NCBI RefSeq assembly: GCF_058153355.1
Contig: NZ_CM177019.1
Length of the DNA stretch: 64,000 bases
Reading direction: 5' to 3' (one strand)
A model generated the notes under the pieces. It saw only the letters and a list, made by a program, of their open reading frames with translations, had not been told where the DNA came from and made no database searches. Made by a program: the position numbers and the translations under genes. Within the stretch, counting starts at the first letter, position 1, and each line of letters begins with the position of its first letter. This document shows positions 13,716 through 59,440 of the stretch, in pieces.

Positions 13716-13743
13716 CATGGCTGCATGCTGATGCCGGATGATT

Positions 13744-13774
<31 letters not shown>

Positions 13775-13804
13775 TCTACCCCGGTTTCCCAGATTGCAGG
13801 CATG

Positions 13805-15112
<1,308 letters not shown>

Positions 15113-16017: not shown

Positions 16018-16024
16018 GATTCAG

Positions 16025-16050
16025 AAAGCCGCAGCCGCGGCTTTTTTATT
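16025..16050 (+). terminator. intrinsic terminator after artJ (overlaps convergent rlmC stop)
   Basis: AAAGCCGC-AGCC-GCGGCTTT hairpin plus TTTTTATT. Confidence 0.6.
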
Positions 16051-17173
16051 GCTTCACCAGCAGCGTCAGCACTTCATAGTGCGCGGTGTGCGGGAACATA
16101 TCAAAAAGCTGTACCCGTTCAATACGATAACCTGACAATTCGCGGATATCTTTGGCCATCGTTTGGGCGTTACAGCTGGAGTAGATGATAAAACGCGGTG
16201 CCATCGTTGAAAGATAATCACACAGCGGTTTACCAATGCCGCGGCGCGGCGGGTTAACCAGCACCAGCTCCGGCACCTCCCCCTGAGCGGTGGCAAACTG
16301 AGTGGAGTCCAGCGCCTGAAATTGCAAACGCGTTAAGCCCAGTTCAGCAGCTGACTGCTTCGCACAGGCAATGGCCTCTGGCGCAATTTCGATCCCGGTT
16401 AACTGCATGTCAGGCGTCGCGCAGTGTAAACCAAAGCCGCCCACGCCACAGAACAGATCCCACATATGTTTAACCGGCAACTGTCGTACCCAGTCGCGCG
16501 CAGTAGCGTACAGCTGGCTGGCGACCACCGGATTAGTCTGGAAGAAACTTTGTGGACGGATCCACAGCGGCACATCGTTAAAACGCTCAGCCAGCGCCTG
16601 TTGTTCGCTCAGATAAATCTCCGTCTCCCCTTCCATAATCGCCATATGTACCGGCTGAATATTGACGGTAATAACTTTCAGCTGCGGTAATTGTTCCTGT
16701 AACCACGGCAGCGCCTTACGCATTTGCGCCAGTTTGGTATCAGAACGCAGTACAAAACGCAGCATCATGCCGCCATCGCTCTGGCTTTCAGTCAGCAGAA
16801 TGTATTTCAGTTCACCACGCTTACGCGCCACGTTGTAAGGCGTTAAACCCGCACGGGCGATAAACGGTTTTAGCGCCGCAAAAACGGGCGCAAATGAGGC
16901 TGGATAAAGCGGGCAGTCACAAAGGTCTTCCGGTGTACCATCTCGATGCAGCATACCGAGCAGTGGTTTTTCAACGCTACCACTCACCACCATTTTAGCT
17001 TTATTACGAAACCCTTGTTCCGGGCCTGACACCGGCGCACACCATTCCTCAACCGGAAAATCAGCGAGCAGATTTTTAAGATCGGCGGTTTTAGCGGAGA
17101 GTTGCTCTGGAATCGGCTACGTTATCCACTGACAGGAACGACAGCGACCCGCGTCGTAAAGTGCGCACTGCAT
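16046..17173 (-). pseudogene. rlmC: 23S rRNA (uracil747-C5)-methyltransferase RlmC interrupted by an in-frame amber codon at codon 19
   Basis: From ATG at 17171-17173 the frame reads [24 protein letters not shown]...; TAG at 17117-17119 where K-12 has Gln as I recall it; rest of the 375-codon frame intact. Confidence 0.8.
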
Positions 17174-23784: not shown

Positions 23785-24507
23785 TTACCGCGTAGCCCAA
23801 CCCTGTTTGTGCAAATAATCCAGTATAAATGGGCGGCTTTCTTTAATGATTGTTCGGCGGATATGATCGCTCCAGGTATCCCGGCGATTATTGCTGCCAC
23901 GGGTGAGGTAATATTCCGCCAGCTGCTCGTCATACTGCGCCAGTGCGTCTTTATCCAGCGGTTGATAGCTGTTTTCATGCACCAAAATGGAAGCCGGTAA
24001 ACGCGGCTTAAGATCCGGATTATCCGCAGGCCAGCCAAGGCACAGCCCAAACAGCGGCAGAACATGCTGCGGTAATTTCAGCAGTTCCGTCACCGCTTCA
24101 ATATTATTGCGCAGGCCGCCGATATATACCCCGCCCAATCCCAGCGATTCCGCTGCGGTTAACGCATTCTGCGCCATCATTGCCGTATCAACGACACCGA
24201 GCAACAGTTGTTCCGCCAGGCCAAGTTGTGCATCCGGACAGATCTGTAAATGGCGGTTAAAGTCGGCACAGAACACCCAAAACTCCGCCGCTTTCGCTAC
24301 GTGTTTTTGCCCGCCGGTCAGCGTCACCAGTTCATCACGTAACGCTTTGTCGGTAATGCGAATAATGCTACTGCACTGCAAAAAACTGGAACTGGACGTC
24401 GCACGGGCGCTGTTAATAATCGCCTCACGCTGCGCTTCGGAAATGGGTTCATCAGTGAAATGGCGAATGGAGCGATGGCCACAAATAAGTTCAATGGTTG
24501 GCGTCAT
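23785..24507 (-). CDS. nfsA: oxygen-insensitive NADPH nitroreductase NfsA
   Basis: 240 aa ORF recognised as NfsA. Confidence 0.93.
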   Translation of the reverse strand: MTPTIELICGHRSIRHFTDEPISEAQREAIINSARATSSSSFLQCSSIIRITDKALRDELVTLTGGQKHVAKAAEFWVFCADFNRHLQICPDAQLGLAEQLLLGVVDTAMMAQNALTAAESLGLGGVYIGGLRNNIEAVTELLKLPQHVLPLFGLCLGWPADNPDLKPRLPASILVHENSYQPLDKDALAQYDEQLAEYYLTRGSNNRRDTWSDHIRRTIIKESRPFILDYLHKQGWATR

Positions 24508-25871: not shown

Positions 25872-27557
25872 GTGAATATAAACGTCGCCGAATTGTTAAA
25901 TGGGAATTACATTCTGTTATTATTTGTGGTCCTCGCGCTTGGGCTATGTCTCGGGAAATTACGACTTGGTTCGATCCAACTGGGTAATTCCATTGGCGTT
26001 TTAGTCGTATCGCTGTTATTAGGCCAACAACATTTCAGCATTAACACCGACGCGCTTAATCTTGGCTTTATGCTGTTTATTTTCTGCGTCGGGGTCGAAG
26101 CCGGACCGAACTTTTTTTCCATTTTTTTTCGCGATGGGAAAAATTACTTAATGTTAGCACTGGTGATGGTTGGCAGTGCGCTGGTGATCGCCTTAGGGTT
26201 AGGTAAGCTGTTTGGCTGGGATATTGGCCTGACGGCCGGTATGTTAGCAGGCTCTATGACGTCAACACCGGTTTTGGTCGGTGCTGGCGATACACTGCGT
26301 CATTCCGGCATGGAAAGCAGGCAGCTCTCACTGGCACTGGATAATCTGAGCCTCGGGTATGCCTTAACCTATTTAATCGGTCTGGTGAGTTTGATTGTTG
26401 GTGCGCGTTACTTGCCGAAATTGCAGCATCAGGACTTACAGACCAGCGCCCAGCAAATTGCCCGTGAACGTGGCCTGGACACGGATGCCAATCGTAAAGT
26501 TTATTTACCGGTGATCCGCGCCTACCGCGTCGGCCCGGAGCTGGTAGCCTGGACCGACGGCAAAAATCTGCGTGAACTGGGTATTTATCGACAAACTGGC
26601 TGTTACATTGAACGTATTCGGCGTAACGGGATTCTGGCAAATCCAGACGGTGATGCCGTACTACAAATGGGCGATGAAATAGCGTTGGTAGGCTATCCCG
26701 ACGCCCACGCCCGACTCGATCCCAGTTTCCGTAATGGCAAAGAAGTTTTCGATCGTGACCTTCTCGACATGCGTATCGTTACCGAAGAAGTGGTCGTTAA
26801 AAACCATAACGCTGTAGGCAAACGTCTCGCACAACTGAAGTTGACCGATCACGGTTGCTTCCTTAACCGCGTCATTCGTAGCCAGATTGAGATGCCGATT
26901 GATGACAACGTCGTGCTTAACAAAGGTGACGTTTTACAAGTCAGCGGCGATGCCCGTCGCGTAAAAACCATCGCCGATCGCATCGGCTTTATCTCGATTC
27001 ACAGCCAGGTCACTGACTTGCTGGCATTCTGCGCCTTCTTTGTTATTGGGCTGATGATCGGGATGATCACCTTCCAGTTCAGCACATTCAGTTTCGGCAT
27101 GGGGAACGCTGCCGGGTTGTTATTCGCCGGAATTATGCTGGGCTTTATGCGCGCTAACCACCCGACCTTCGGTTACATTCCGCAGGGTGCATTAAGCATG
27201 GTGAAGGAGTTCGGCTTGATGGTGTTTATGGCAGGCGTTGGTCTGAGCGCTGGTAGCGGTATTAATAACGGCCTGGGCGCGATTGGCGGTCAGATGTTGA
27301 TTGCCGGATTAATTGTCAGTCTGGTGCCAGTGGTTATCTGCTTCTTGTTCGGTGCTTATGTATTGCGAATGAACCGCGCACTGTTGTTCGGCGCAATGAT
27401 GGGCGCACGCACCTGCGCGCCGGCAATGGAGATCATCAGTGATACAGCTCGCAGTAATATCCCGGCGCTGGGCTATGCGGGCACTTACGCAATCGCCAAC
27501 GTCCTGCTAACGCTGGCTGGGACAATCATCGTCATGGTATGGCCAGGATTAGGATAA
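25872..27557 (+). CDS. ybjL: putative transport protein YbjL (AAE family with TrkA-C domains)
   Basis: 561 aa polytopic membrane protein; synteny. Confidence 0.88.
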
Positions 27558-35839: not shown

Positions 35840-36951
35840 TTGCGTGGGCTAACTTTAAGTAATTCCCCACTGGACTCGTCGGTGAGAACGTATAAATAAC
35901 CGTCGGGTCCAGTGCGAACATCACGAATTCGCTGCCCTCTGTCCGTTAAAATACGGCCATCTTCTGTCACTTTGTCGCCGTTGACGCTCATCACAATGAC
36001 ATCTTTATCTTTCAGCGCGCCAATAAATAATTTTTGCTGCCACTGGGGGAATTTATCGCTGTTATAGAAGGCCATGCCGCTCACGGCGGGCGAATCTTTC
36101 CAGTAAAAAACAGGTTGCTCGGTCCCGGCGACGATCTCCCCTTTCGCTTCCGGTATCTTAAATCCCGAATAGTTGATTCCCCAGGTTGCCAGCGGCCAGC
36201 CGTAGTTTTTGCCTTTTTGCGGGATATTAATTTCATCACCACCGCGGGGGCCATGTTCATTTAGCCACAGTGCATTACTCCAGGGATTCATCGCCATTCC
36301 TTGCGGGTTACGAATACCATAAGACCAGATCTCGGCGCGTGCATCGGATCTCCTGGCAAAAGGATTATCATCCGGGATCTCGCCCTAGTCAGTAAGACGC
36401 ACCAGTTTGCCCTGTAATTTATCCAGATCCTGCGCCGTCGGGCGCTGATTGTTTTCGCCCAGAGCAATAAAAAGATAACCTTTACCGTCGAATACCAGCC
36501 GCCCGCCAAAATGGTTGCCGGTAGACAGTTTTGGCATCTGGCGAAAAATGGTGCGGAAGTCGGTCACTTTTGAGAGATCATCACTTAAACGACCATACCC
36601 CACGGCAGTTCCGGCTTTGCCATCATCGCCAACTTCGGAATAGCTTAACCAGATGCGGCGCGACTGGGCAAAATCAGGTGCTAAAGCCACATCCATTAAG
36701 CCGCCCTGCCCGTGCGCCCAAACTTCCGGCACTCCGGAAAGCGGCGCAGATAATCCTTTTCCTGCTTGCCAGCGACGTAACTCACCGCCGCGCAGGGTGA
36801 TTAACATGCCGTGATTATCAGGTAAAAAGGCCAGCGCCCAAGGGTGAGCGAGTTTGTCTTGCAGTACCTCGACATTTACCGTTGCAGGAGCCGCCCAGAG
36901 AGCGGAAGAAAGACAAATAAGGGGCACAGAGAAAAAGAATTGTCGATGCAT
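35836..36951 (-). pseudogene. yliI: soluble aldose sugar dehydrogenase YliI interrupted by an in-frame amber codon (codon 189 of 371)
   Basis: ORFs 36385-36951 and 35836-36297 are in the same frame; frame reads ...KLVRLTD*GEIPDDNPF... with TAG at 36385-36387; total 372 codons equals full-length yliI. Confidence 0.8.
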
Positions 36952-46301: not shown

Positions 46302-48173
46302 TTATCTACGCATGAATGCGTATTCTGATTGTGGTTGTGCGACGTAATGCCCCGGCCCGACGCATTGCAACGAGACGGCTGCAACCTCTTCGCCACGCAG
46401 ATGAATATTGCTGGGAAGATCGTCCGACAGCAGTACACGCTGCGGTCGTTGTCGGGACGGTTCAGCGACCGGAACTGCCGCCAGTAATTTACGCGTATAA
46501 GGATGCTGCGGGTTTTCAAAGACCGCGCGCCGTGGACCAATTTCAACAATTTGTCCGAGATACATCACCGCCACACGATGACTAATCCGCTCTACCACGG
46601 CCATATCGTGGGAGATAAACAGATACGCAATGCCGAAATCACGCTGGAGATCGAGCAACAAGTTGATAATCTGCCCGCGAATAGAAACATCCAGCGCCGA
46701 GACGGCTTCGTCGGCAATGATCACTTTTGGATTCAATGCCAACGCGCGAGCAATGCAGATGCGCTGGCGCTGACCGCCGGAAAACTCATGCGGGTAACGC
46801 CAGGCATGTTCAGGTAACAGGCCCACGCGCTCCAGCAACCACGCAACGCGTGCAGCCGCTTCTTTACCTGGCAATAAACCGTGTACGCGCAGCGGTTCGA
46901 TAATCGAATCACCGATGGTCTGACGTGGGTCCAGCGAAGCGTAAGGGTCCTGAAAAATAAACTGAATATCGCGACGCAATGCCTGAAGTTTGCCGGGTGA
47001 CAAAGTATCGATTCGCTGACCGTTAAAGATAATTTCGCCGCCCTGCGATTCGACCAGGCGCAGCAACGCCCGCCCGGTAGTGGATTTACCGCTGCCAGAC
47101 TCGCCCACCAGCGATAGCGTTTCGCCAGGCCAGAGATCAAAACTGACTTTCTCAACGGCATGCACTTCCCGCGTTACGCGATTCAACAAACCGCTGCGCA
47201 AAGGGAAACGGGTGACCAGATTACGCACCCGTAAAACAGGTTCGCCATCCACCACCGTTTTCTGCTCGATGGGTGGTTCCTGTTTCGCTGGATGTTCAAG
47301 CGATATCAATGGGAAACGTCGGGGATAATCTAACCCTTTCATCGCACCAAGTTGCGGAACAGCAGCTAACAGCGCACGGGTGTAAGGATGTTGCGGTGCA
47401 TGAAAAATCTGTTCGACGCTACCCGTTTCCACCGCCTCGCCCTGATACATCACCAGTACCCGATCGGCAATCTCTGCCACCACGCCCATATCGTGAGTGA
47501 TAAAGATAACGCCCATCGACATCTCTTTTTGCAATACTTTGATTAATTGCAGGATCTGCGCCTGAATAGTGACATCCAGCGCGGTGGTTGGCTCATCGGC
47601 AATCAGCACCGCCGGACGGCATGACAACGCCATCGCAATCATCACTCGCTGGCGCATCCCGCCAGAGAGTTGATGCGGATAACGTGAAAGAATGGTTTGT
47701 GCCTCCGGAATGCGTACCTGATCCAGCATCCGCTTCGCCTCGACCATTGCTTCTTCACGACTGGCGTTTTGATGCAGACGAATTGATTCGGCAATCTGTT
47801 CACCCACAGTAAATACCGGGTTCAGCGATGTCATCGGCTCCTGAAATATCATCGCCATATCCGCACCGCGCACATGGCGCATTTGTGCAGCGCTCTGTTC
47901 GCTAAGTTCAATCACCTCACGACTGCGCCGCCGCAACAGCATTTGATCGCACGGCACTAAACCACCCGCCTGTTCCAACAGGCGCATCAATGCCAGCGCA
48001 GTCACTGACTTACCGGAGCCGGATTCGCCAACAATTGCCAGCGTCTCACCACGTTGTAGGCTAAAAGAGAGATTGCGGACCGCAGCTATTTTCTGCTGGT
48101 CCTGCCTAAAGGCAATATTCAGATTTTCAACCGCCAGCACATCACCGGCATCAAGTTCATCACTGTGTGGCAA
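46302..48173 (-). CDS. gsiA: glutathione ABC transporter ATP-binding protein GsiA (two ABC domains); start codon uncertain
   Basis: Two Walker A/signature sets; the codon aligning with the remembered K-12 N-terminus ([10 protein letters not shown]) is TTG at 48171-48173, the ORF also extends to a GTG at 48281; overlaps iaaA 3' end. Confidence 0.85.
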
Positions 48174-51325: not shown

Positions 51326-51406
51326 GGCCTGATAAGTCGCGACAAGCGTCGCATCAGGCATTTGCTCCAGACGCCAGATGCGGCGTGAACGCCTTATCTG
51401 GCCTAC
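51326..51406. repeat. REP/BIME palindromic units between moeB and fsaA
   Basis: AGGCCTGATAAGTCGCGACAAGCGTCGCATCAGGCA and GCCAGATGCGGCGTGAACGCCTTATCTGGCCTAC match REP consensus. Confidence 0.7.
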
Positions 51407-51491
51407 GGTTCGGGCGCAGATTTCCAGGCGCGGCAAGCGTTGGTGCCCTCCACCACGTTATCAGCAATTGATGAGGATGCAGAACGTCCTG

Positions 51492-52154
51492 TTAAATCGA
51501 CGTTCTGCCAAAAGCCCCCTGCCAGTCCTGCTCAAACTTCGCCACGGCGGCGTCAACTGCCGGATAGCTAATCATCTGCTGCGCCACATCCAGTGGCAGA
51601 GTAATTGATTCACATCCTGCCAGTAAGCAGTCCAGTGCCTGACGCGGGGTTTTGAAACTTGCGGCTAACACTTTCGCCTGCGGCGCATGCATTTTCAATA
51701 ACTGGTGTAAGTCGGTCACGGTTTGAATACCGCTACCGCCCTGAGCATCAATACGATTAACGTAAGGCGCAACATATTCCGCACCTGCCAGCGCCGACAG
51801 CAGCCCTTGTGCCGCGCCATATACCGCGGTTCCCAGCGTCGGAATCCCTTCCGCTTTTAACATCTTAATAGCTGCCAGCCCCTCGGCGGTCACCGGAACT
51901 TTCACCACGATATCAGCAATAATAGAGCGCAGCTTACGCGCGTCATTCACCATCCCTTCGGCAGTGGTAGCCATCACCTGGGCAAACAGACGCCCCTGAC
52001 CGCCCATCGCTTCGTGAAGCTCCGGAAGTACCACCTCCAGCGGTTTTTTACCCGCGGCGATAATACTTGGGTTAGTGGTCACACCCGCCAGCGGAAAAAT
52101 ACGTGACAGCGCCTTCACCGCAACAACGTCTGAAGTATCCAGATACAGTTCCAT
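51492..52154 (-). CDS. fsaA: fructose-6-phosphate aldolase 1
   Basis: 220 aa ORF recognised as FsaA. Confidence 0.93.
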
Positions 52155-52283
52155 ACCATCCTCAAAATGTACTTTTTGTCTGAATGTAGACTATCACGGG
52201 AAAACTCTCTGAACAGTTGACGCACATCAATCAAACTTTCATTCGAAAGTATTTTAATGTTTGAACGAAACAGAGAGGCAACT

Positions 52284-53183
52284 ATGATTTTCAATATTCA
52301 GCGCTACTCGACCCATGACGGCCCCGGCATCCGCACGGTCGTATTTCTTAAAGGCTGTTCGCTGGGCTGCCGCTGGTGTCAGAATCCGGAAAGCCGCGCC
52401 CGCACGCAGGATCTGCTGTATGACGCACGTCTGTGCCTGGAAGGCTGCGAGCTGTGCGCTAAGGCCGCGCCGGAAGCGATTGAGCGCGCGCTGAATGGTT
52501 TGCTTATTCATCGGGAAAAGTTAACCCCGGAGCATCTGACGGCGTTAACCGACTGCTGCCCGACACAGGCGTTAACCGTGTGTGGTGAAGTGAAAAGCGT
52601 TGAGGAGATCATGGCGACCGTTCTGCGCGACAAACCGTTTTACGATCGCAGCGGCGGCGGCTTAACGCTTTCCGGTGGTGAGCCGTTTATGCAGCCGGAA
52701 ATGGCGATGGGGCTACTGCAAACCAGCCACGAAGCCGGTATTCATACTGCGGTAGAAACCTGTCTGCATGTGCCGTGGAAATACATCGCCCCTTCTCTGC
52801 CGTATATCGATCTGTTTCTTGCCGATTTAAAACACGTTGCCGACGTGCCGTTTAAACAGTGGACCGACGGTAACGCCGCCAGAGTGCTGGATAACCTGAA
52901 AAAACTCGCAGCGGCGGGGAAAAAAATCATCATCCGCGTGCCGTTGATTCAGGGCTTTAATGCCGATGAAACCTCTGTGAAAGCCATTACTGATTTTGCC
53001 GCCGACGAGCTGCACGTCGGCGAAATTCATTTCCTGCCCTACCACACGCTGGGCATCAACAAATATCACTTACTTAATCTGCCCTATGACGCCCCGGAAA
53101 AACCGCTTGATGCGCCAGAACTGCTCGACTTTGCCCTGCAGTATGCCTGCCAGAAAGGGTTAACCGCGACCTTACGAGGATAA
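52284..53183 (+). CDS. ybiY: putative glycyl-radical enzyme activating protein YbiY (PflE-like radical SAM)
   Basis: 299 aa from [18 protein letters not shown]; CxxxCxxC motif; precedes ybiW. Confidence 0.88.
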
Positions 53184-53188
53184 CAACC

Positions 53189-55621
53189 ATGACCACACTG
53201 AAACTGGACACGCTCAGCGACCGCATTAAAGCGCACAAAAATGCGCTGGTTCATATTGTGAAACCGCCGGTCTGTACCGAGCGCGCGCAGCACTATACCG
53301 AGATGTATCAACAACATCTCGATAAGCCGATCCCGGTACGTCGCGCGCTGGCGCTGGCCCATCACCTGGCGAATCGCACCATCTGGATCAAACACGATGA
53401 GTTGATCATCGGCAACCAGGCAAGCGAAGTTCGCGCCGCGCCGATCTTCCCGGAATATACCGTCTCCTGGATCGAAAAAGAGATTGATGATCTGGCGGAT
53501 CGTCCGGGTGCAGGTTTTGCGGTGAGCGAAGAGAACAAACGCGTTCTGCATGAAGTGTGCCCTTGGTGGCGCGGTCAGACGGTACAGGATCGCTGCTATG
53601 GCATGTTTACCGATGAGCAAAAAGGCCTGCTGGCGACCGGTATCATTAAAGCGGAAGGTAATATGACCTCCGGCGATGCGCACCTGGCGGTCAATTTCCC
53701 ACTGTTGCTGGAAAAAGGGCTTGATGGTCTGCGCGAGAAAGTGGCGGAGCGCCGCATGCGTATTAACCTGACCGTGCTGGAAGATCTGCACGGCGAGCAA
53801 TTCCTGAAAGCGATTGATATCGTGTTGGTGGCGGTCAGTGAACATATTGAACGTTTCGCTGCCCTGGCGCGTGAAATGGCCGCTACCGAACCCCGCGAAA
53901 GCCGTCGCGATGAACTGCTGGCGATGGCCGAAAACTGCGACCTTATCGCCCACCAGCCGCCGCAGACTTTCTGGCAGGCGCTGCAACTGTGCTACTTCAT
54001 CCAGTTGATTTTGCAGATCGAATCTAACGGTCACTCAGTATCGTTTGGTCGTATGGACCAGTATCTCTACCCGTACTATCGCCGCGACGTTGAACTGAAC
54101 CAGACACTGGATCGTGAACACGCCATCGAGATGCTGCATAGCTGCTGGCTGAAACTGCTGGAAGTGAACAAGATCCGCTCCGGCTCGCACTCAAAAGCCT
54201 CTGCGGGAAGTCCGCTGTATCAGAACGTCACCATTGGCGGGCAAAATCTGGTTGATGGTCAGCCGATGGACGCGGTGAATCCACTCTCTTACGCAATCCT
54301 CGAATCTTGCGGCCGCCTGCGTTCCACTCAGCCTAACCTCAGCGTGCGCTACCACGCGGGAATGAGTAACGATTTCCTCGATGCCTGCGTACAGGTGATC
54401 CGCTGCGGCTTCGGGATGCCGGCGTTCAACAACGACGAAATCGTCATCCCGGAATTTATTAAACTCGGTATTGAACCGCAGGACGCTTACGACTACGCGG
54501 CGATTGGCTGTATCGAAACCGCCGTCGGTGGCAAATGGGGCTATCGCTGCACCGGGATGAGCTTTATCAACTTCGCCCGCGTGATGCTGGCGGCGCTGGA
54601 AGGCGGTCGTGATGCCACCAGCGGCAAAGTGTTCCTGCCACAAGAAAAAGCGTTGTCAGCGGGTAACTTCAACAACTTCGATGAAGTGATGGACGCGTGG
54701 GACACGCAAATCCGTTACTACACCCGTAAATCAATCGAAATCGAATATGTCGTCGACACCATGCTGGAAGAGAACGTGCACGATATTCTCTGCTCGGCGC
54801 TGGTGGATGACTGTATTGAGCGAGCGAAAAGCATTAAACAAGGCGGCGCGAAGTATGACTGGGTTTCTGGCCTGCAGGTCGGCATTGCTAACCTCGGCAA
54901 CAGCCTGGCGGCAGTGAAGAAACTGGTGTTTGAACAGGGCGCGATTGGTCAGCAACAACTGGCTGCCGCACTGGCGGATGACTTCGACGGCCTGACGCAC
55001 GAGCAGCTGCGTCAGCGGCTGATTAACGGCGCGCCGAAGTACGGCAACGACGATGATACTGTCGATACGCTGCTGGCTCGCGCTTATCAGACCTATATCG
55101 ACGAACTGAAGCAGTACCATAACCCGCGCTACGGTCGTGGTCCGGTTGGCGGCAACTATTACGCGGGTACGTCGTCTATCTCCGCTAACGTACCGTTTGG
55201 CGCGCAAACTATGGCAACGCCGGACGGGCGTAAAGCCCACACCCCGCTGGCAGAAGGCGCAAGCCCGGCTTCCGGTACTGATCATCTTGGCCCTACTGCG
55301 GTCATTGGCTCGGTGGGTAAACTGCCTACGGCAGCGATTCTCGGCGGCGTGTTGCTCAACCAGAAACTGAATCCAGCAACACTGGAGAACGAATCTGACA
55401 AGCAGAAACTGATGATCCTACTGCGCACCTTCTTCGAGGTGCATAAAGGCTGGCATATTCAGTACAACATCGTTTCCCGCGAAACGCTGCTGGAAGCGAA
55501 AAAACATCCGGATCAGTACCGCGATCTGGTGGTGCGCGTAGCGGGTTATTCCGCCTTCTTCACTGCGCTCTCTCCAGACGCACAGGACGATATCATCGCC
55601 CGTACTGAACATATGCTGTAA
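53189..55621 (+). CDS. ybiW: putative pyruvate formate-lyase-like glycyl radical enzyme YbiW
   Basis: 810 aa; C-terminal glycyl-radical motif (RVAGYSAFF). Confidence 0.9.
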
Positions 55622-55766
55622 TCTCCTTCGCCCGGCGGCGTCGTCGCCGGGCCAAATCATTCACATCATCAATTCCGCTCTCACTTTCATTCGAAATATA
55701 ATTTGTGCTCTGCGTCACATTGTTATTACACTGTTACGGTTTCATTTTCGAGCCAGGAGCACACCT

Positions 55767-56582
55767 ATGAGCGTAAAAGTTATCGTCACAGACATGGACG
55801 GTACTTTTCTTAACGATGCCAAAACGTACAACCAACCACGTTTTATGGCGCAGTATCAGGAACTTAAAAAGCGCGGCATTGAGTTCGTTGTCGCCAGCGG
55901 TAATCAGTATTACCAGCTTATTTCGTTCTTTCCTGAGCTAAAGGATGAGATCTCTTTTGTCGCGGAAAACGGCGCACTGGTTTACGAACATGGCAAGCAA
56001 CTGTTCCACGGCGAACTGACCCGACATGAATCAAGAGTTGTCATTGGTGAACTGCTGAAAGACAAGCAGCTCAATTTTGTTGCCTGCGGTTTGCAAAGCG
56101 CGTATGTCAGTGAGAATGCGCCAGAAGCATTCGTCGCGCTAATGGCAAAACACTACCATCGTCTGAAACCTGTGAAAGATTACCAGGATATTGATGATGT
56201 ACTGTTCAAGTTTTCGCTCAACCTGCCTGACGAACAAATCCCGTTAGTGATCGACAAACTGCATATTACGCTCGATGGCATTATGAAGCCCGTCACCAGT
56301 GGTTTTGGCTTTATCGACCTGATTATTCCTGGCCTGCATAAAGCGAATGGTATTTCGCGGTTACTGAAACGCTGGGATCTGTCACCGCAAAATGTGGTAG
56401 CGATTGGCGACAGCGGTAACGATGCGGAGATGCTGAAAATGGCGCGTTATTCCTTTGCGATGGGCAATGCTGCGGAAAACATTAAACAAATCTCCCGTTA
56501 CGCTACCGATGATAATAATCATGAAGGCGCGCTGAATGTGATTCAGGCGGTGCTGGATAACACCGCTCCTTTCAATAAGTAA
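55767..56582 (+). CDS. ybiV: HAD-superfamily sugar phosphatase YbiV
   Basis: 271 aa; HAD motif [10 protein letters not shown]. Confidence 0.9.
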
Positions 56583-56591
56583 CCTTTTCCC

Positions 56592-56626
56592 GGCCGGAGC
56601 AATCGTTCCGGCATCTCTCTTTTTTG
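56592..56626 (+). terminator. intrinsic terminator after ybiV
   Basis: GCCGGA-loop-TCCGGC hairpin followed by CTCTTTTTTG. Confidence 0.55.
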
Positions 56627-56733
56627 CTCACTTTGTGCACTTACTCAAGATTTTCATCTTGCGTTAACTTATTTTTAACTTAAAGTATCAATCATAACTA
56701 TTTTCACTTTCGAACGAAAGCTGTGAGGTTGAT

Positions 56734-57993
56734 ATGACTTTTACCTATGAGACACTGCCAACAGATGCGAAAACGGCTATCCGTAAGATGAAAGCGGAGC
56801 TGCGACAACAGATCGGCGATGTACAACAGGTCTTCGATAAACTCTCTGCAAAAATCGAAGCACGTGTAGCAGAAATAGACGCCCTCAAAGGGCAAGGATT
56901 ACCGGTTTGGCCGGAAGTCCCATATAGCGACGTTGCAGCAGGTACAGTGAGTGAAGCCACGCGCAATGAAATTAAACGTCGCGGCTGTGCAGTAATTAAA
57001 GGCCATTTCCCCCGCGAACAGGCACTGGCATGGGATCGCGCAATGCTTGACTATCTTGATGCCAATCATTTTGATGATGTTTATAAAGGTCCCGGCGACA
57101 GCTTCTTTGGATCGCTGGAGGCATCTCGTCCTGAAATCTACCCTATTTACTGGTCGCAGGCACAAATGCAGGCGCGACAAAGTGACAATATGGCGGCGGT
57201 GCAATCTTTCCTTAACCGCCTGTGGAAGTCTGAAAGCAACGGCAGGCAGTGGTTTGATCCCGATATTAGCGTGATCTATCCGGACAGGATCCGCCGCCGC
57301 CCACCAGGCACGACGTCTAAAGGTCTGGGTGCACACACTGATTCTGGGGCGCTGGAACGTTGGTTATTACCCGCTTATCAGCGTGTTTTTGCCCATGTTT
57401 TCAACGGTAATGTCGACGATTACGATCCGTGGGATGCTGCATACCGTACTGATGTTGAAGAGTACACGGTGGATAACACCACAAAATGTTCGGTGTTCCG
57501 CACTTTTCAAGGCTGGACGGCGCTTTCCGATATGTTACCAGGACAGGGATTATTGCATGTGGTGCCAATCCCGGAAGCGATGGCGTATGTTTTATTGCGC
57601 CCACTGCTGGATGACGTACCGGACGATGAGTTGTGTGGGGTCGCTCCTGGCAAAGTTCTGCCCATTTCAGAGAAATGGCATCCACTACTGATTAAAGCAC
57701 TCACTTCCATTCCAGCTATTACAGCGGGGGATTCCGTCTGGTGGCACTGCGACGTGATCCACTCCGTCGCATCGGTAAATAATCAACAAGGCTGGGGGAA
57801 TGTGATGTATATCCCTGCCGCGCCGATGTGTGAGAAAAACCGGGCTTATGCGCATAACGTCAGGAAAGCACTGGAAAAAGGGGCATCACCGGGCGATTTC
57901 CCTCGAGAAGATTATGAAGCAAACTGGGATGGCCGATTTACGCTGGATGATCTGAACATTCACGGTAAGCGCGCGCTGGGCATGGATGTTTGA
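56734..57993 (+). CDS. ybiU: DUF1479-family protein YbiU
   Basis: 419 aa ORF; synteny. Confidence 0.85.
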   Translation: MTFTYETLPTDAKTAIRKMKAELRQQIGDVQQVFDKLSAKIEARVAEIDALKGQGLPVWPEVPYSDVAAGTVSEATRNEIKRRGCAVIKGHFPREQALAWDRAMLDYLDANHFDDVYKGPGDSFFGSLEASRPEIYPIYWSQAQMQARQSDNMAAVQSFLNRLWKSESNGRQWFDPDISVIYPDRIRRRPPGTTSKGLGAHTDSGALERWLLPAYQRVFAHVFNGNVDDYDPWDAAYRTDVEEYTVDNTTKCSVFRTFQGWTALSDMLPGQGLLHVVPIPEAMAYVLLRPLLDDVPDDELCGVAPGKVLPISEKWHPLLIKALTSIPAITAGDSVWWHCDVIHSVASVNNQQGWGNVMYIPAAPMCEKNRAYAHNVRKALEKGASPGDFPREDYEANWDGRFTLDDLNIHGKRALGMDV

Positions 57994-58083
57994 GAGGTGA
58001 TGGATTAGTAGAAGTGAATTGATGTGAGGTTAAGAAAGCAGGTTCGGTGTTGCTCAGATTGCTGACAAAGTGCGCTTTGTTCA

Positions 58084-58117
58084 TGCCGGATGCGGCGTGA
58101 CCGTCTTATCCGACCTA
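58084..58117. repeat. REP palindromic unit downstream of ybiU
   Basis: TGCCGGATGCGGCGTGACCGTCTTATCCGACCTAC matches REP consensus. Confidence 0.6.
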
Positions 58118-58213
58118 CAAAATCATGCAAATTCAATATATTGCGATACACTGGTAGATACTGTTATGGCCTGCAAGTTTTTTTCTACCCCGGTTTCCCA
58201 GATTGCAGGCATG

Positions 58214-59440
<1,227 letters not shown>

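Follow-up and report, generated by a model that had tools for sequence, protein, structure and literature searches.

Does the amber codon near the 5' end of rlmC mark a gene that has been lost, or does it stem from a sequencing error, is it read through by a suppressor tRNA, or is it bypassed by an internal start? We address this question for the stretch of DNA presented above, which was analyzed over its whole length of 64,000 nucleotides and is referred to here as the window. The product of rlmC is responsible for m5U747 in 23S rRNA (PMC3241648; PMC7056703).

Identity of the reading frame and of its amber codon

The rlmC frame was read and translated on the minus strand, where it runs from an ATG at 17173 to 17171 to a TAA at 16048 to 16046 and comprises 375 codons. 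Its sole interruption is a TAG at 17119 to 17117, which is codon 19 in the context W-I-T-stop-P-I-P-E-Q and is followed by the base C. With this stop at codon 19, the window does not hold an uninterrupted frame for the full RlmC enzyme. The original prediction had given both the coordinates and the codon number exactly. The features of the locus are as follows.

16046 to 17173, minus strand: rlmC reading frame, very probably a pseudogene, 375 codons plus TAA (K-12 alignment, TIGR02085, and synteny)
17117 to 17119, minus strand: codon 19, an amber codon (TAG) derived from CAG (Gln) (direct reading, 11 references, and two sister assemblies)
17120 to 17173, minus strand: residual N-terminal open reading frame (ORF) of 18 codons with Cys3, Cys11, and Cys14 (translation)
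16046 to 17032, minus strand: mechanical downstream ORF of 328 amino acids (aa) from the GTG at codon 48 (ORF listing)
16023 to 16046, no strand assigned: GC-rich terminator-like hairpin between the convergent rlmC and artJ stops (terminator-like site found on the plus strand)

Alignment to K-12 b0859 revealed a co-linear gene with the same start ATG, 95.2% nucleotide identity, no indels, and one internal stop. With Gln19 restored, the translation scored 731.4 bits against the NCBIfam model TIGR02085, the RlmC equivalog with a curated cutoff of 429.5 bits, and residues 2 to 374 matched profile positions 1 to 374. The gene order potFGHI-ybjO-rlmC, with artJ convergent, is shared with K-12, 2020CK-00188, and E2348/69; co-linearity with K-12 around the locus covers 864 to 900 kb. 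The end of artJ (16017, plus strand) and that of rlmC (16046, minus strand) are 28 nt apart, and on its strand no other gene follows rlmC before the hairpin at 16023 to 16046. Thus, the frame resembles K-12 rlmC (also named rumB or ybjF) in locus, ybjO-rlmC-artJ synteny, start codon, length, and full-length hidden Markov model match. It differs in carrying TAG instead of CAG at codon 19, which closes the frame after 18 codons, and in nine further amino acids, all of which except L151M are found in other E. coli alleles. As had been predicted, the remainder of the frame is intact, with neither indels nor a second stop relative to K-12. The possibility that K-12 rlmC starts downstream of the amber codon, named in advance as an observation that would overturn the claim, does not hold, as the annotated K-12 start is the same ATG.

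Codons 17 to 19 read ATA ATG CAG in K-12 MG1655, ATA ACG CAG in 2020CK-00188, whose full-length allele is the nearest one, and ATA ACG TAG in the window. Codon 18 of the window is therefore ACG (Thr) as in 2020CK-00188, whereas K-12 has ATG (Met). At codon 19, CAG (Gln) was found in 11 of 11 E. coli reference copies, including K-12 and E2348/69; the alignment to b0859 thus bears out the CAG that the original prediction had assigned to K-12. The window differs from K-12 and 2020CK-00188 at this codon by a single C-to-T transition (Q19 to stop). When 5,418 complete E. coli genomes were searched with 69 bases centered on the TAG, no exact match was obtained, and even the best hits deviated at one position. 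Since every reference carries CAG and the 69-mer lacks an exact match, the transition is private to the lineage of the window.

In K-12 MG1655, the counterpart of the whole window lies in reverse orientation at about 853 to 912 kb, is co-linear with it, and shows 90 to 97% identity depending on the segment. Its closest complete E. coli genomes (about 18, among them R32_14_1F from a goat, 2020CK-00188, and EC42405) show 98.4 to 98.9% identity, and its source is a rare E. coli lineage. A Shigella origin was rejected by argument: the window is not similar enough to K-12, and the sister assemblies were deposited under the name E. coli. The window also contains two copies of an insertion sequence.

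13725 to 15027: IS621-family (IS110-like) copy between artM and artJ, transposase at 14834 to 13854, minus strand
About 58144 to 59436: IS621-family (IS110-like) copy between ybiU and ybiT, transposase at 59243 to 58263, minus strand

The two copies encode identical transposases of 326 aa. The first adjoins a match to the REP-derived naRNA4 at 15028 to 15108, and a further naRNA4 match lies at 51326 to 51403; these IS621 and naRNA4 repeats are where short-read contigs of the clone are interrupted. Two other regions stand out in composition or divergence. Between ybjQ and ybjP, an island at about 7500 to 10100 has a GC content of 30 to 36%, compared to about 50 to 55% in its flanks. It harbors an ORF of 594 aa (9475 to 7691, minus strand) that K-12 lacks and that the annotation of the related genome R32_14_1F describes as a pentapeptide repeat-containing protein, and the adjacent ybjP is unusually divergent (87% nucleotide identity to K-12). 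The segment from fsaA to ybiU (about 51445 to 58144) is far more divergent than the rest of the window, with 90.3% identity to K-12 and many gaps, and ybiU itself (56734 to 57993, plus strand) shows only 74% nucleotide identity. This divergence suggests that the segment is an allele imported from a distant lineage.

Sister isolates and history of the allele

Sister assemblies were reached via lineage-specific variants of PotG, GsiC, and ArtJ; YbjO was too conserved for this purpose, occurring in 18,491 blocks of the collection. The data obtained in this way comprise GCA_015332025.1 and GCA_043012465.1, both deposited as Escherichia coli, and the Logan assemblies of SRR28786219 and SRR31441161. 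The TAG at codon 19 was read directly in GCA_015332025.1 and in SRR28786219. The ORF of 328 aa located 3' of the stop was found residue for residue on three Logan contigs, as called by gene callers, and a full-length version of the window allele with Gln19 was absent from about 15 billion proteins. The NCBI (PGAP) annotation of GCA_015332025.1 lists no protein for the rlmC locus, a gap of the kind that pseudogenes leave in this table.

Relative to the window, GCA_015332025.1 carries four single-nucleotide polymorphisms (SNPs; at 26350, 43370, 48665, and 52227) and GCA_043012465.1 a different single one (at 46354), while SRR31441161 is identical over 17.6 kb. A 1-bp indel was observed in nfsA (24507 to 23785, minus strand), where SRR28786219 and GCA_015332025.1 lack one G of the GG pair at window position 24035. 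The missing base causes a frameshift near codon 158 in these sister isolates, and nfsA of the window is intact. As shown by these SNPs and the indel, the sister data represent separate isolates and not re-assemblies of the data underlying the window.

This bears directly on the third option of the original prediction, a sequencing or assembly error in the source assembly of the window. For a point mutation, it is independent confirmation that carries weight, and not the likelihood of a chance occurrence. The difference concerns a single base, and the assembly spans the insertion sequence copies and is hence probably based on long reads, both of which would fit an error. A substitution is, however, an atypical type of long-read error, and this TAG is shared by two assemblies that each differ from the window elsewhere, namely a short-read NCBI assembly and the Logan assembly of another run. 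The variant is therefore not confined to one assembly, as an artefact would be. An error has practically no probability left and was excluded as an explanation: the TAG is real and inherited, and it arose before the clone diversified.

Comparison with other alleles provides an estimate of the age of the lesion. Over its 5' 450 nt, rlmC shares 99.1% identity with the B2 strain E2348/69, and from about nt 565 to 1000 it does not differ from 2020CK-00188. rlmC of the window is thus a recombinational mosaic of an ordinary kind, assembled from common E. coli alleles: its 5' part is of the B2 type, and its 3' part is of the 2020CK-00188 type. Three of its substitutions are private when E2348/69 is included among the 11 references, namely Q19 to stop, the synonymous A59A, and L151M. 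A count of 12 private changes (10 synonymous, 1 missense, and 1 nonsense) against 10 references turned out to be an artefact of thin sampling, as it dropped to three once E2348/69 was added. A dN/dS-style argument for long purifying selection followed by a late stop was likewise wrong, because the 5' part is a B2-type allele. Within rlmC of the window, neither a frameshift nor a second stop was found. Since the gene has no further lesion beyond the stop, its inactivation is recent on the scale of allele divergence, yet older than the SNP diversity of the clone itself.

Possible suppression of the amber codon and possible restart downstream of it

A suppressible allele was the remaining alternative in the original prediction. 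In this case, a Gln-inserting amber suppressor tRNA (a supE-like glnV or glnX with the anticodon CUA or a tRNA on a mobile element) would keep rlmC functional, together with a second gene of the window, yliI. This gene encodes an aldose sugar dehydrogenase (36951 to 35836, minus strand), and its codon 189 is TAG at 36387 to 36385, whereas K-12 and the closest genomes have CAG. The yliI allele was absent from 18 complete genomes matching the segment and present in GCA_015332025.1, GCA_043012465.1, and SRR31441161, and the gene is split into products of 188 and 151 aa. Among about 57 K-12 orthologues in the window, rlmC and yliI are the only broken ones. Both were interrupted by a change from CAG to TAG, so that in each of them the UAG replaces a codon for the very amino acid (Gln) that such a tRNA would insert. 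CAG to TAG accounts for 9 to 28% of nonsense paths, depending on the transition bias and calculated from the window's own codon content, and the probability that two nonsense mutations are both of this type is about 0.01 to 0.08, for a coincidence that was noticed post hoc. In addition, both amber codons are fixed across all sampled isolates of the clone, and neither gene contains a further lesion.

Several observations argue against suppression. Of the transitions that create a stop codon, CAG to TAG is the commonest, and the nfsA frameshift in sister isolates indicates that inactivation by means other than amber codons also occurs. No tRNA genes are located in the 64-kb window. A 23-mer representing the anticodon stem-loop of a supE-type tRNA had no match in 100,044 species-representative genomes, a collection that does not include the genome of the window; in a control search, the window's own TAG-bearing 35-mer had no match there either, so that nothing about the clone follows from this negative result. 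Among complete E. coli genomes, 155 of 5,423 carry the supE-type allele, and among the matches listed, all 40 of 40 are laboratory derivatives of K-12, to which the clone is 90 to 97% identical. Relatives of the clone possess the normal set of two Gln(CTG) and two Gln(TTG) tRNA genes. All seven genes of the window that end in TAG keep this codon unchanged relative to K-12, an observation that would speak against suppression but is uninformative at the short timescale of the clone.

The known system closest to such a situation is that of the supE44 (glnV44) laboratory strains of K-12. The likeness lies in a TAG at a Gln codon, where a suppressor would restore the wild-type protein, and here a second allele of this kind is found in yliI. 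The clone is not K-12, however, and the supE-type allele was found only in K-12 laboratory derivatives among the matches listed and in no species-representative genome. Taken together, suppression of the two amber codons is highly improbable. The same small chance applies to the wider proposal of a wild clone with a Gln-inserting suppressor, in which changes from CAG to TAG would be near-neutral and accumulate, with codon 19 of rlmC and codon 189 of yliI as two instances in 64 kb. If this proposal were true, it would represent a natural incipient step toward UAG encoding Gln in a free-living enterobacterium, and a genome-wide excess of CAG-to-TAG changes combined with a CUA tRNA would identify the clone as an amber-suppressor strain of natural origin, which is rare. 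The pair of Gln-to-amber changes in one window is the one feature that could lend the finding more weight. A strain engineered or recoded in the laboratory was rejected by argument, as several assemblies were deposited as E. coli and are far from K-12. Recoding of TAG of the pyrrolysine or selenocysteine type was likewise rejected, since machinery for it is not known in E. coli.

Two broken genes in 57 do not exceed the usual pseudogene load of E. coli isolates. The 2 broken orthologues among about 57, the IS621 copies, and the nfsA frameshift in sister isolates represent ordinary gene attrition.

What could be made from the interrupted gene depends in part on its cysteine residues, which can be compared with those of the paralogue RlmD (RumA; PDB 1UWV/2BH2). 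The two enzymes share 31% identity and differ in their targets, U747 for RlmC and m5U1939 for RlmD (PMC3241648 for U747). C11, C14, and C87 of RlmC align with C87, C90, and C162 of RlmD, and C3 corresponds to C81 by its motif position as read from the sequences, MAFFT having placed the gap elsewhere. In RumA, the four cysteines coordinate a [4Fe-4S] cluster whose proposed role is to stabilize the central domain, while RlmCD enzymes are cluster-less and have a helix in place of the loop (PMC5614603). RlmC lacks the N-terminal TRAM domain of RumA (about 75 residues) and starts directly at the cysteine loop. The alignment of the cysteines shows that the lost N-terminal segment carries cluster ligands. 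All four codons for cysteines of the RumA ligand type are present in rlmC of the window, but C3, C11, and C14 are located upstream and C87 downstream of the stop, and no single product holds all four. The amber codon was predicted to fall inside the N-terminal cysteine cluster region. More precisely, it lies five codons past the motif C3-x7-C11-x2-C14, so that the 18-residue peptide retains three ligand-type cysteines; the fourth, C87, follows downstream.

In-frame codons at which translation could restart after the stop are GTG48, ATG61, GTG62, GTG63, and ATG74. Complementarity to the anti-Shine-Dalgarno sequence was found for GTG48 alone (GAGG, -6.2 kcal/mol) and for none of the other in-frame starts. 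According to the original prediction, only a product from the downstream GTG could be made. The ORF exists and, with 328 aa matching profile positions 49 to 374 of TIGR02085 at 654 bits, retains the whole methyltransferase domain. Its availability is mechanical, however, as the GAGG is located about 12 to 14 nt upstream of the GTG, a distance that is barely usable, and K-12 has the identical sequence without an annotated start there. Some truncated RlmC may be produced from GTG48, perhaps a trace. As judged from the sequence, such a product would have only one of the four cluster ligands left, with Cys3, Cys11, and Cys14 missing, and an enzyme deprived of both the cluster loop and its first 47 residues is unlikely to be active.

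An N-terminally truncated RlmC of 315 to 328 aa, restarted at GTG48 or ATG61 and methylating U747 without the Fe-S loop, would draw further support from the fact that the cluster is not catalytic and that RlmCD enzymes do without one (PMC5614603). It would, however, have to dispense with profile positions 1 to 48 in addition to the three ligands and rely on a restart codon 87 nt downstream of the stop. Moreover, the RumA cluster is the proposed stabilizer of the central domain, and RlmCD enzymes substitute a helix for it, not nothing (PMC5614603). We regard such an active truncated enzyme as very unlikely, although slightly less so than suppression.

Probable loss of RlmC and its expected consequences for the clone

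The best explanation is very probably a recent, lineage-private nonsense mutation (CAG to TAG, Gln19 to amber) by which rlmC became a pseudogene in a small natural E. coli clone. This corresponds to the recent loss-of-function allele listed first in the original prediction, and it is the option favored by the private C-to-T transition and by the lack of any other lesion in the gene. Ribosomes would terminate after 18 codons, and little or no RlmC would be made. The 23S rRNA of the clone is thus expected to lack m5U747 or to contain trace amounts of it, owing to rare read-through by near-cognate tRNA-Gln. Near-cognate read-through of UAG is rare and is largely due to tRNA-Gln, and in rlmC it would restore the wild-type protein. 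A C following UAG is a weak termination context. Read-through at a sub-percent level would not sustain stoichiometric modification.

The allele probably persists because RlmC is dispensable. Because no further gene lies between rlmC and the terminator that it shares with the convergent artJ, the premature stop has no polar effect on neighboring genes. The phenotype of the Keio rlmC knockout is mild, with some accumulation of 17S precursor at 20°C, few changes in the proteome, and a moderate effect on growth (PMC7056703), and earlier work on E. coli rlmC knockouts was summed up as "no significant change in phenotype" (PMC4605293). These mild phenotypes and the terminal position of the gene indicate that a mutation in rlmC is tolerated. 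The Keio strain resembles the clone in the expected consequence, i.e., the lack of RlmC and an unmethylated U747, and it is viable (PMC7056703). It is an engineered deletion in K-12, whereas the window contains a spontaneous point mutation in a wild clone.

Loss of rlmC could also have been positively selected. Without m5U747 in helix 35, near the macrolide/ketolide site, the clone would gain an advantage under antibiotics, and the allele would have spread by a sweep and not by drift. Sister isolates carry a frameshift in nfsA, and as loss of this gene is classically linked to nitrofurantoin resistance, this is a hint that the clone may have been exposed to drugs. In other species, disruption of RlmCD raises the telithromycin MIC in Streptococcus pneumoniae (PMC4605293), and RlmC F193L arose in Haemophilus parainfluenzae under long-term azithromycin (PMC9927455). 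The pneumococcal effect, however, acts via RlmAII and reduced m1G748 in cells carrying erm(B), an arrangement that E. coli does not have (PMC4605293), and the rlmC literature cited here reports no such phenotype for E. coli (PMC7056703; PMC4605293). The findings in S. pneumoniae and H. parainfluenzae do not transfer directly to E. coli. Furthermore, the lack of recurrence of the TAG-bearing 69-mer in the 5,418 genomes argues against selection, in a search that covers this exact allele only. An adaptive loss therefore has a very small probability, comparable to that of an active truncated enzyme.

The nonsense mutation in rlmC is an ordinary pseudogene-forming lesion in a dispensable gene, and events of this kind are already known. 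It adds one more dispensable rRNA modification gene to those lost by point mutation in a natural isolate, which in itself matters little. It predicts a wild E. coli clone without m5U747 in its 23S rRNA, and the clone could serve as a natural knockout for the role of m5U747 outside K-12, in ribosome maturation in the cold and in macrolide/ketolide binding.
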